Program-made: the position numbers
Part shown: piece after piece, positions 12,001 to 15,000 of the stretch
Layout: every line of letters starts with the position of its first letter
Position numbering within the stretch: the first letter of the stretch is position 1
Source of the DNA: Bryobacterales bacterium
GTDB taxonomy: Bacteria; Acidobacteriota; Terriglobia; Bryobacterales; UBA6623
NCBI GenBank assembly: GCA_965247305.1
Contig: OZ252030.1
Location: forward strand, 625,262 to 689,261
Length of the DNA stretch: 64,000 bases
Direction of reading: 5' to 3'

Positions 12001-15000
12001 ACCTCGTCGGAATATCGACGCCTGCCTCGCGATTGCACCTTGTGCCGCCGCCGCAAAAATCCTCGCACCCGCTCGTCGACATAGTTGTCCACCGCGCGGT
12101 AGGCCTGCGTGCGCGTCCCCTAGCTAAAGTAGTTTGTCCAACCCCGCTAACTGCGGTTCAGCCGGTCGCGTACTTCGTTCCAGGTCCCCACATTGCTCGG
12201 CCTCAGCTGCTCGCGCACTTTCTGCTTGAGCCGCCCGACACTCTTTCTTGACGGACTTGCACCTAAATACCAATGGCCATCCTTGCGATAACGGTGCACT
12301 CCAAACGGATATCGCGAGAAAATCAAAGCTCTCGCTCTTGGCTCTTACCCATCGCGTCTTCGCCGGGTTCAGGGTCAGCCCAATCCGCGTCAGCACTTGC
12401 TCCGTCCACGGCAATGCCTGCGCCGCTTTTCCGCGGCTAAGGATCACAAAGTCGTCGGCATAAGTATCCACCACGGCTCGGAACTCTTCTTCCTTTCCCT
12501 GCATTCTCCAATGCTTCAGAAAACGGTTCATGTACATATTGGCCAACAAGGGACTCACCACTCCTCGAACGCAAAAGGTAACTTGGGACGATCGAGCCCC
12601 CCGGGCTGGAGTTTGGGGATGGTGAACGGCCGGAAAGCGGAGCGGATGGAGGGATCGGAATCGAATGCCGGATCGTGACCGTCTCGCGGTCGACAAGGAC
12701 TTCCTTTACGAGCAACCGGAGAATCTTCTGGCGTTCTCCGACATCGAGGGAGTCAGCCCGAGCTTGCAAGTTGGCGCGAAACTCCCCCAGCGTTTCCGTC
12801 AGCCTTAGGTATTTAGACTGATCCTCCGCCGCCATCTCGAGGGAGTGTAACTCAGACTCGATCGCCTGCTGCTGCTTGCGCAGAGGAGGCATTCGTTGGC
12901 GCAGCTCGGCCAGCGTCAGCAGTCCTTCTTGGTAAGCGATCACCAACCGCTCGGCGCCGTTCTCCAAGCGCACCCGCTCCCGTCGCAAGTCGGCCTCTCG
13001 TCTGCGCCGTGGATCGGCGTTCTGGGCGACCTCCATGCGACGCTCGATCTCCGAACGGATCAGCGACGGATCGTCGAGTAACTCGATGATCGCCCTCCAG
13101 ACAACCTCATCCAACGAATCTTGCCGGATGGGTCGGTTGGTGCACAACGCTCCCTGCAGGCGCCGATAGGCGTCCGAGCCGAGGCAACGGTAATAGGACA
13201 GCCTTCGTTTCGATGTCCGTGTCGAAACTCGGTACCGAGCATAACCACACTGCCGGCACACCAACATCCCCTGCAGCAGCGTCGGCTCGACGGTGCGCCG
13301 TGGCGAGTGCTTTTTGTTGCTCTCTAACTGCTCCTGAGCGAGCGCAAAGGTCTCTTCGGCGACCAGCGCCGGTACGGGAATCTCGATCCATTCTTGCCGC
13401 GGCCGCTCCTGAGTGGCGCTGTCTCGACTCGGCGCTCCCTGGCGCTGACGCAGCGGCCGAGTGATGCGTTGACGAGGCCGCAGCCGGGTCTTGCCGTAGC
13501 AAGCCACGCCGTGATAAGCCGGATTCCGCAGCATCCCCCAAACCGTCGAGCGCTCCCAGCGTGTCTTCCCGGTTCGCGTGGGAATCTGCCGCTCGTTCAG
13601 TAGACGAGCGATGGCGTTGATGCTCAAGCGTTGCTCGCTGTACAGCTCAAACACTTCTCGCACCACCCGCGCTTCCGCGTCGAGCACCTCATAGTAAGCC
13701 TCTGAACGGTCGCTCCTCTTCACATAGCGATACCCGTAAGGCGCACCCGAGAGTACGTTCGCCACTCCCTGCTGGGCCTTGTGCCGTTTGCCCCGCCGAG
13801 AGCGCTCCGCGATCTGCGCCCGCTCGTACTCGGCGATCATGCCTTGAAACTGCACCAGCAACTGATCTTCAGGCGTGCTCCCCGCCGCCGACTTCAAGAA
13901 AATCAACTCCACCCCACAGCGCGAGAGTTCTTCGGTTAACAGGACTTGATACGCATATTTGCGACTAAGCCGGTCCGGCGAGTAAGCCAGCGCCGCTTCA
14001 ATCTGCCCTTCCGCCGCCAGATCGCGCAGGGCTTCCAAGCCGGGTCGCGCCAAGTTGGCTCCACTGTAGCCTTCGTCCTCGAACACCCACTCAGCCGGCA
14101 CTGCGTACCCGTTCGTCTGGGCATACTGCCTCAGCGCGGCTGTCTGAGAGCCGATCGTGTGATTGTCCTTCTGACGATTCGAAGAGACGCGAGCGTAGAT
14201 GGCGGCAGCTTTGTTCATGGATCTTCTCCTGGGGATGCGATTGGCCGATTGGCCATCGCTGCTCGGGCGCCAGCAACTGGTAAACCTGGGCCAGCTTAGC
14301 GGGCAGTAAACGATCAAACCGATATTCGAATCGAAGCGCGAGTTCCTGGCCGGCCTGCTGCTCAGCCACGCCCCCGTCTCCGATCGAGCAGCGCAAGCAA
14401 AGCTCGCGAGACGACCTCACTGAGAGACGTCCCGGTAGCGGCGGCGTGGGAACGCACGCGTTCGACCAAACTCCGCGACACCTTCACCGTAAAGGCGACC
14501 TTGGCATCGCCGACAGGAAGGGGCTGCTTCAGACGCTGCGCTTGTTCGAGGTAACGATACGCCTGGCGGGGAGAGATGCGGCAGTCTCGGACCATCTCTT
14601 CGACGGCGTCGGGCAGATGGTCGAACTGTTGCAGCAAGCGGCGAGCGCGATTGAGGCGCTCGGCTTTTTGGGTGTCGCTGGCACGACCCATATGTCATAA
14701 GAATACAACTGTACATGACACATCTCAAGCGCATTATCGATACCGCAACTCCCGATCAAACACAAAGTTACCTTTTGCGTTCGAGGAGTCACCACTCCGC
14801 CTTGCGGCGTACCGCGCTTCGTCCCCTGGCCGCCCGTCATGCGTCGTTTCCCGTTTCCATTCCGCTCTTCCACCGGGACTCGCAGCCACATTTTGATCAG
14901 CTTCAAAACCCAGCGGTCGCACACCCGCCTCGTGACGCATCGCATCAACTCGGGCGTAGGAATCGTATCCAAGTACTTGGACAAAGCACCCTCGACTACT

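Follow-up and report, generated by a model that had tools for sequence, protein, structure and literature searches.

The window analysed here, a stretch of 64,000 nucleotides from a Bryobacterales contig (OZ252030.1), contains a group II intron whose reverse transcriptase (RT) gene is split in two by other DNA. This raised the question of what the inserted DNA is and how it came to lie at a conserved codon of another mobile element. We consider it likely that it is a three-gene element, the size of an insertion sequence, which moves by integrase excision to a circle and reintegrates at the RT motif.

The host intron (intron A) was located at 11763..15995 on the minus strand using Rfam and copy comparison. 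It measured 4,233 bp with the element and 1,998 bp when empty. Group II intron RNA domains were found by Rfam in the window at 11763-11915 and 15714-15970, which placed ribozyme domains on either side of the RT/maturase ORF, as in a group II intron. Translation and family search identified the 5' half of the RT gene at 14791..15507 (minus strand), ending ...TPQGGV, and the 3' half at 11925..12558 (minus strand), starting SPLLAN...YADD. The 5' half matched TIGR04416 under the whole-protein cut-off. The gene was thus interrupted at codon 6 of the motif PQGGx[V/I/L]SPLL. Comparison of filled and empty alleles, together with an inverted repeat search, fixed the element at 12559..14790 on the minus strand, 2,232 bp from arm to arm. 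A perfect inverted repeat of 25 bp was present at 12560-12584 and 14765-14789, and it was 26 bp in the other two copies in the genome, in agreement with the terminal repeats of about 26 bp given in a preliminary description of this locus. The left arm, which would be the P' half of attP on the attL side, covered 26 bp at 14765..14790 (minus strand), with an inner motif conserved in 65 left ends. The right arm, the presumed P half on the attR side, was placed at 12559..12584 (minus strand) by allele comparison. The outermost base of this right arm was the host letter, in the window copy only. The empty alleles defined a 2-bp core, GT, at attL (14791..14792, minus strand; the first two bases of motif codon 6) and again at attR (12557..12558, minus strand). 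The att sites were therefore short and surrounded a 2-bp crossover core; the empty site corresponded to exact restoration, and the same register was found in relatives.

The copies in the genome were compared. As described previously, three copies were present, at contig positions 637821, 5936422 and 6772888. Their identity had been underestimated at 99.6-99.9%, since only 0-1 base in 2,230 differed. The empty alleles reported for both host introns were recovered, six of intron A and one of intron B, which holds the third copy, and they gave the exact junctions. Only 3 of the 24 PQG-type sites in the genome were occupied, with 21 motifs uninterrupted. In two contig runs of one sample, the depth of the element was about 3x that of the flank and the depth of intron A about 8x, which fits the assembly, although contig depth is a poor measure of copy number and the sample is only possibly the source of the genome. 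Runs X5 and X13 contained an element copy that was about 98% identical (42-43 differences). The two filled copies of intron A lay at different genomic sites, and they had two private SNPs in common and were alike over nearly the entire haplotype. This is most simply explained by one integration, probably followed by copying through gene conversion or trans retrohoming. The three copies thus probably represent two integration events. All four gametes were found at two SNPs among the intron copies, which meant that recombination among them was real. We also considered an excision footprint, as 4 of the 6 empty intron-A alleles carried the element-arm letter at +3 (Thr for Ser). A simple footprint was unsupported because no such allele had the two private SNPs of the filled copies and the haplotypes were mosaic. 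Gene conversion or ordinary variation remains as the explanation of the +3 letter suggested by the alleles.

The largest gene of the element encoded a large serine recombinase (LSR) at 12437..14218 on the minus strand. Pfam domains Resolvase, Recombinase and Zn ribbon were above their cut-offs, and a zinc ribbon with coiled coil was present. S13 and its flanking motif were invariant in 54 sequences. The closest folds were the SPbeta, phiC31 and Bxb1 integrases. The protein family was very large: all of the 8,000 candidates scored reached E<=1e-50, which puts it at 8,000 protein clusters or more.

Target choice was investigated in relatives, taken as the best 80 of 567 matches, which gave 79 loci of 55-95% identity in a sample biased to close relatives. 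Ends were placed by an unbiased inverted-repeat search plus a motif anchor, and at least one end was readable in 76 of the 79 loci. An RT half abutted the element in 55 of the 76 by tblastn, with 26 forward, 24 reverse and 5 mixed. The same codon was occupied by these 55 elements across 55-95% integrase identity and several phyla. RT sequence was present on both sides in 39/76 and was colinear in 34, 17 per orientation; the other 5 loci had non-colinear RT flanks. Group II intron RNA was found in 31 of the 33 RT-flanked loci scanned with Rfam, and several D1-D4 families were represented. The elements were uniform in length (2,220-2,302 bp in 61 elements). The same site and anatomy were observed in cultured isolates, namely Bradyrhizobium elkanii USDA 76, Mesorhizobium AR02 and Rhodococcus ZPP. 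The earlier claims of one codon entered in either orientation, and of a site-specific parasite of introns at the PQG motif, were borne out by the exact-codon junctions, the intron RNA and the empty alleles. At the level of sequence, these results supported a site-specific serine-integrase parasite of group II introns that uses this motif in either orientation.

The cores were not fixed. Among 34 distinct colinear insertions, the two cores matched in 20, were different by one base in 13 and by two bases in 1. In the case of the intron-B copy, the core was TT (host) at one end and GT (element) at the other. The rule of matched attP and attB cores thus failed in 14 of the 34, and both orientations occurred with non-palindromic cores. 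Near-identical elements (99.8-100%) within one genome were also found in both orientations and with different cores (L021/L022/L024, L025/L026 and L005/L007). From the junctions we infer that the enzyme tolerates a mismatch in the 2-bp overhang, that is, a relaxed ligation. Bxb1 cannot religate mismatched (incompatible) overhangs (PMC5062993, in the part consulted), and such tolerance would therefore depart from the textbook enzyme. Some of the core mismatches could stem from later recombination between copies, and the 5 non-colinear loci were noted in this respect. The two arms were near-symmetric, with 15-24 of 24 bases alike and mostly at least 21. The inverted ends would then be the two arms of a symmetric attP, and a circle could enter either way round. 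A palindrome of the whole target site was rejected as the cause of the two orientations; the symmetry of the RT site was 0.44 compared to 0.34-0.47 for shifted controls over 10 bp. Only a few inner positions were shared.

In the remaining 21 of the 76 loci there was no RT match, and insertion was not always in the PQG motif as had been stated. These 21 comprised 12 loci in groups with another target, 7 scattered off-target insertions, 1 locus with an RT-like motif only and 1 whose flank was too short. One of the 12 (L058) was assigned by the tree only. The scattered insertions were in other genes or DNA, for example an IS21-type transposase and an ABC permease. The elements with another target had been described as a single sister clade, whereas in the tree they fell into two groups apart from each other, with 8 and 2 tips (FastTree, 66 sequences, midpoint-rooted, no outgroup). 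Their target gene (TPVLAKHS...) had no meaningful family match. These loci raised the possibility of a serine transposon with relaxed, multi-target specificity: it would recognise a short pattern in the DNA, and RT genes would be no more than the commonest match. Tn4451 and Tn5397, with TnpX and TndX, are small elements with serine recombinases and a 2-bp core; they carry cargo and are not known to be gene-specific. Some of the scattered insertions were made by elements identical to RT-resident copies (L021 compared to L022 and L024), and this, like the two groups with another target and the variable cores, would fit such a transposon. However, more than two thirds of the readable loci were at one codon in spite of the divergence of their integrases and the several phyla. 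The TndX-like clade is marked by DUF4368 and more than three unrelated target genes, none dominant. Here there was one dominant target beside the 7 off-target insertions, and DUF4368, a domain common in the multi-targeting clade according to the part of PMC10083194 consulted, was absent from the Pfam matches of the integrase. We regard a multi-target transposon as unlikely, and site-specific parasitism with occasional off-target integration as the preferred reading.

The 3' end of the integrase gene was unusual. The window copy had 553 codons within the element and no stop, and then ran into 40 host-derived residues. Among 62 two-ended elements, 57 had no integrase stop inside the element, and all 57 left it in the same phase; the other 5 had an internal premature stop. 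The far end of the element coded a conserved peptide of 18-32 residues exactly in this exit phase. In the window element this detached C-terminal tail (DSSNAKGNFVFDRELRYR, then stop) lay at 14734..14790 on the minus strand and was in frame with the integrase only if the element ends were joined. The last ~19 residues of the integrase were thus coded at the opposite end here, and ~19-33 were cut off across the family. The tail beyond the repeat showed a coding signature: over 50 distinct ends its synonymous fraction was 0.65, while the two remaining forward frames gave 0.17 and 0.09; pairs were not independent, and the mirror frame gave 0.52, as expected. The tail was present in 0 of the 120 best database protein matches of the integrase, whose C-termini vary. 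A scan for exactly joined arms gave 2 genome, 3 metagenome and 0 viral matches, and all 5 of these natural junctions had a continuous integrase-plus-tail frame. Four were head-to-tail tandem arrays (68-98% alike), for example two different elements in one RT gene (L081). The fifth (L083) was ambiguous, being either an array or a path that runs through a circle. Among the joints listed for four contig runs, in which contigs drop rare forms, there was no back-joint of a free circle. The att site was therefore within the reading frame of the integrase, and the gene was complete only in the joined form.

These ends also bear on another reading, in which a conventional insertion sequence, bounded by terminal inverted repeats and duplicating a short target, is moved in trans by some other transposase and carries the recombinase as cargo. 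The 25-26-bp repeats and the short repeat at both junctions have this appearance. However, the element had no transposase gene, the 2-bp 'duplication' was often unlike at its two ends, and the recombinase frame crossed the repeat and was completed by the other end. Such an insertion sequence is extremely improbable, and recombination by the integrase of the element is the better account.

A split end of a serine integrase has a precedent in the DsiB islands at Dehalococcoides ssrA. In these islands the 3' end of the LSR overlaps att and the stop is absent from the island (McMurdie et al. 2011, PMC3146451, in the parts consulted), as in the element described here. The authors suggested that full function of the enzyme might require the circle (same source, in part). 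In contrast, DsiB islands are larger, reside at single-copy ssrA and have C-termini reported to be divergent in the parts seen of PMC3146451. The present element has a conserved tail with a coding signature at its other end. The 'suicidal' tyrosine integrases of archaeal SSV1, pTN3 and pT26-2 also have the recombination site in the integrase gene, and integration splits this gene (PMC8371274, partly consulted). However, as far as that source was seen, they use tyrosine chemistry and the catalytic part is separated, whereas here ~19-33 C-terminal residues are taken off a serine enzyme.

The element carried two further genes. A ribbon-helix-helix (RHH) protein of 109 aa was encoded at 14362..14691 on the minus strand (Pfam RHH_1, E=1.1e-5). 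Its reported presence in most relatives was confirmed in 72 of the 75 loci with enough upstream DNA. A sigma-70-like promoter with an inverted pair, TGTCAT/ATGACA, over it was found at 14700..14728 on the minus strand (1 found compared to 0.2 expected). The strict pair occurred in 23 of 54 distinct left ends. Judging by this pattern, the pair is likely an RHH operator, and the RHH protein is likely an autorepressor. The element had been described as having only two genes. However, a third conserved gene was identified at 14091..14369 (minus strand), a 92-aa ORF with a conserved core of ~40 aa. The core was found in 74/76 loci, with GTG or ATG as the start. For this middle gene the synonymous fraction was 0.72, and the two remaining forward frames gave 0.14 and 0.16. 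Its product had no match in Pfam, NCBIfam or PHROG, and in the Atlas it matched only unnamed clusters at <=0.80.

The predicted complex of the middle protein with the integrase gave a score of 0.65, while the best control gave 0.00. Of 157 solved pairs, 116 reached the mark for this score, as did 2 of 215 mismatched pairs; these rates are approximate, as our own alignments were used. Contacts agreed by at least 79% between runs, and the pLDDT of the partner was at least 66. The predicted interface consisted of the base of the coiled coil (369-394, 480-505) and the last strand of the zinc domain (512-522) of the integrase. Known recombination directionality factors (RDFs) bind their integrases in this region (bioRxiv 10.1101/2025.01.03.631226, in the part seen). 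The complex model supports a predicted binding of the middle protein to the integrase where RDFs bind, and its score may reflect likeness to solved integrase-RDF structures. These results suggested that the middle protein is likely an RDF.

The tail and the middle protein had a motif in common. The pattern [FYL]xF[DE]R was present in 39 of 49 distinct tails, and [FY]xF[DE]R in 47 of 54 middle proteins and 0 of 54 integrase bodies. In the complex model, the strand of the middle protein with this motif paired with the last integrase strand. In the fold of the joined L081 C-terminus, a disordered linker led to the tail, which formed a strand at residues 265-270 with a block pLDDT of 80; the tail had a pLDDT of 54 in the full-length integrase fold. 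The shared motif and the predicted strand pairing led to the hypothesis that the tail and the factor compete for one edge. As a tentative extension, which we hold to be possible rather than probable, direction would be encoded in the DNA. The tail made from the circle would block the edge and permit integration only, and the enzyme made from the chromosome would be open to the factor and would excise. If true, this switch, together with mismatch-tolerant ligation, would give a huge family of intron hyperparasites that spans phyla a new kind of control.

A directionality factor would also suit a domesticated on/off switch for the intron RT, like the interrupting elements of sigK or heterocyst genes. 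Both RT halves were still open in 22 of the 32 colinear loci that could be judged, and the best NCBIfam match of the integrase was XisF, whose score of 116 bits lay below the cut-off of 375. However, the RT of intron A was frameshifted at two further places common to all 8 copies, and that of intron B was frameshifted too. Long-read errors were rejected as the source of the frameshifts because they were common to all 8 copies and the contig runs listed no indel at these places. Excision of the element would therefore not revive either RT. In addition, one element enters unrelated introns, either way round, as well as unrelated genes; elements pile up in tandem; and a DNA search of 41 related genomes gave matches in 5 and full-length matches in only 2. 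A domesticated switch is very unlikely on these grounds, and the element is better regarded as a parasite.

On the preferred reading, the three genes would form an autoregulated operon in which the RHH protein represses its own promoter. The serine integrase of the element would excise it to a circle, with the middle protein assisting as directionality factor. On the circle the integrase would be completed with the conserved tail, and the integrated copy would make a random host tail. The circle would integrate at codon 6 of the RT motif and tolerate one, sometimes two, overhang mismatches. This tolerance would free the element from the codon at the site, and the core would change from hop to hop. 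Off-target and tandem integration would occur occasionally. The likely gain for the element is a multi-copy, dispensable and strongly conserved target in many phyla, and the cost would be borne by the intron, whose RT is broken.

In its domain order and fold, the integrase resembles the LSRs of phages and islands that work with an RDF (SPbeta SprA/SprB, phiC31, Bxb1, A118). The symmetric att arms around a 2-bp core and a small partner predicted at the coiled-coil base are further likenesses. Unlike those systems, the element is 2.2 kb long, has no phage, transfer or cargo genes, targets the inside of another mobile element, occurs in both orientations with often mismatched cores and has its att site inside the integrase gene. 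Gene-specific LSRs are known, with magnesium chelatase and prolyl isomerase targets (Durrant et al., PMC10083194), and in that survey, as far as consulted, diverse integrases likewise share one site in a conserved coding sequence. The text of the survey and 8 supplements, picture pages and the full database aside, named no RT or intron target. The words 'intron' and 'reverse transcriptase' were absent from PMC12884075, in the part consulted, and one supplement. The IS607 family resembles the element in its small size, serine recombinase and 2-bp core, but lacks terminal inverted repeats, and its target is an invariant GG beyond which specificity is low (PMC6188088, partly consulted). The TnpA of that family is small, with a DNA-binding domain at its N-terminus. 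Membership of IS607 was rejected on the 25-26-bp repeats, the 553-aa LSR, the varying cores and an NCBIfam IS607 score of 41 against a cut-off of 110. No description of this element was found in the literature searched, which lay outside subscription journals, ISfinder and att databases. We regard it as a real, widespread and apparently undescribed variant of LSR integrative element with group II introns as its prey.

Group II introns are usually seen as invaders, and the members of the element family examined here mostly disable introns at a motif that is among the most conserved in the RT. The family might be a natural check on intron spread. For recombinase biology, the element departs from the usual pattern in three ways. 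Its att site lies within the gene for the serine integrase, whose conserved tail is detached; a new candidate for a directionality factor has a motif in common with this tail; and 2-bp overhangs seem to be tolerated even when mismatched. An integrase this compact, with its target already in many bacterial genomes, could also serve as a cross-phylum integration tool.

The surroundings of intron A showed one more level of insertion. The intron interrupted the terminal repeat of a ~180-bp MITE-like repeat at 11597..11762 (no strand assigned), with the remainder at about 15996-16015. This repeat had 261 matches in the genome, 203 of them of at least 140 nt. The insertion point within the terminal repeat of this family was identical for all 8 intron-A copies. 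The intron is in the repeat and the element is in the intron, which makes a nested locus of repeat, intron and integrase element. Runs X5 and X13 skipped 11602-16014, so that both repeat and intron were absent at this locus. Three of the intron-A copies contained a further copy of such a MITE-like repeat.

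The host group II intron of the window, intron A, was located within a MITE-like repeat, which it interrupted between 11597-11762 and 15996-16015. The MITE-like family was approximately 180 bp long with 261 hits in the source genome (G000), and its terminal repeat was the insertion site of intron A. The insertion position within this terminal repeat was identical for all eight intron-A copies, namely the window copy and those at seven further sites in G000. Intron A is a group II intron homing into a MITE. The MITE-like repeat was additionally present inside three intron-A copies. 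A further, ninth copy with an internal deletion was observed at G000 2257569-2258728, where the target motif was absent. Two frameshifts in the reverse transcriptase (RT) gene, which spans 11925-15507 in the window copy, were common to all eight copies. The intron-A family nevertheless comprised eight near-identical copies despite the frameshifted RT. An intact RT encoded elsewhere in G000 may act in trans to mobilise intron A.

Letter changes were found where the serine-integrase element inserts. Position +3 of the site carried the letter of the element arm in four of the six empty intron-A alleles (G000 1666000, 2681897, 6745362, and 7714460). In the right arm of the window copy, the outermost base was the host letter. 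The two changes looked reciprocal.

Among relatives of the element, loci L081 (790-5262), L080, L082, and L084 each held different members of the family stacked head to tail at one site, with 68-98% likeness between them. The upstream integrase had acquired the tail of the downstream element, which provides a route to chimeric enzymes. The same RT half was present on both flanks (5'/5' or 3'/3') in L016, L018, L055, L063, and L066, resulting from either rearrangement between copies or an assembly artefact. A second arm-like motif overlapped the promoter in the left ends of L062, L063, L069, L072, and L075, and a loose pattern detected such a motif in 12 of 54 left ends. Through this motif, the integrase may be able to control its own promoter.

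Relatives at another target (L003, L004, L008-L010, L019, L053, L054, L056, L059, and L060) adjoined on one side a conserved motif of ~21-27 bp, reading GNIVxGV, beyond which the DNA was unrelated. In several of these loci, the other side was occupied by an unnamed gene, represented by its 3' half (TPVLAKHS...). This site may be the att junction of another element.

The empty allele of intron B, the second host family, was flanked by two other repeat families (G000 contig 6018943-6020670 and 6022360-6023942), which numbered about 85 and about 40 near-identical copies. Recent mobile elements were very abundant in G000.
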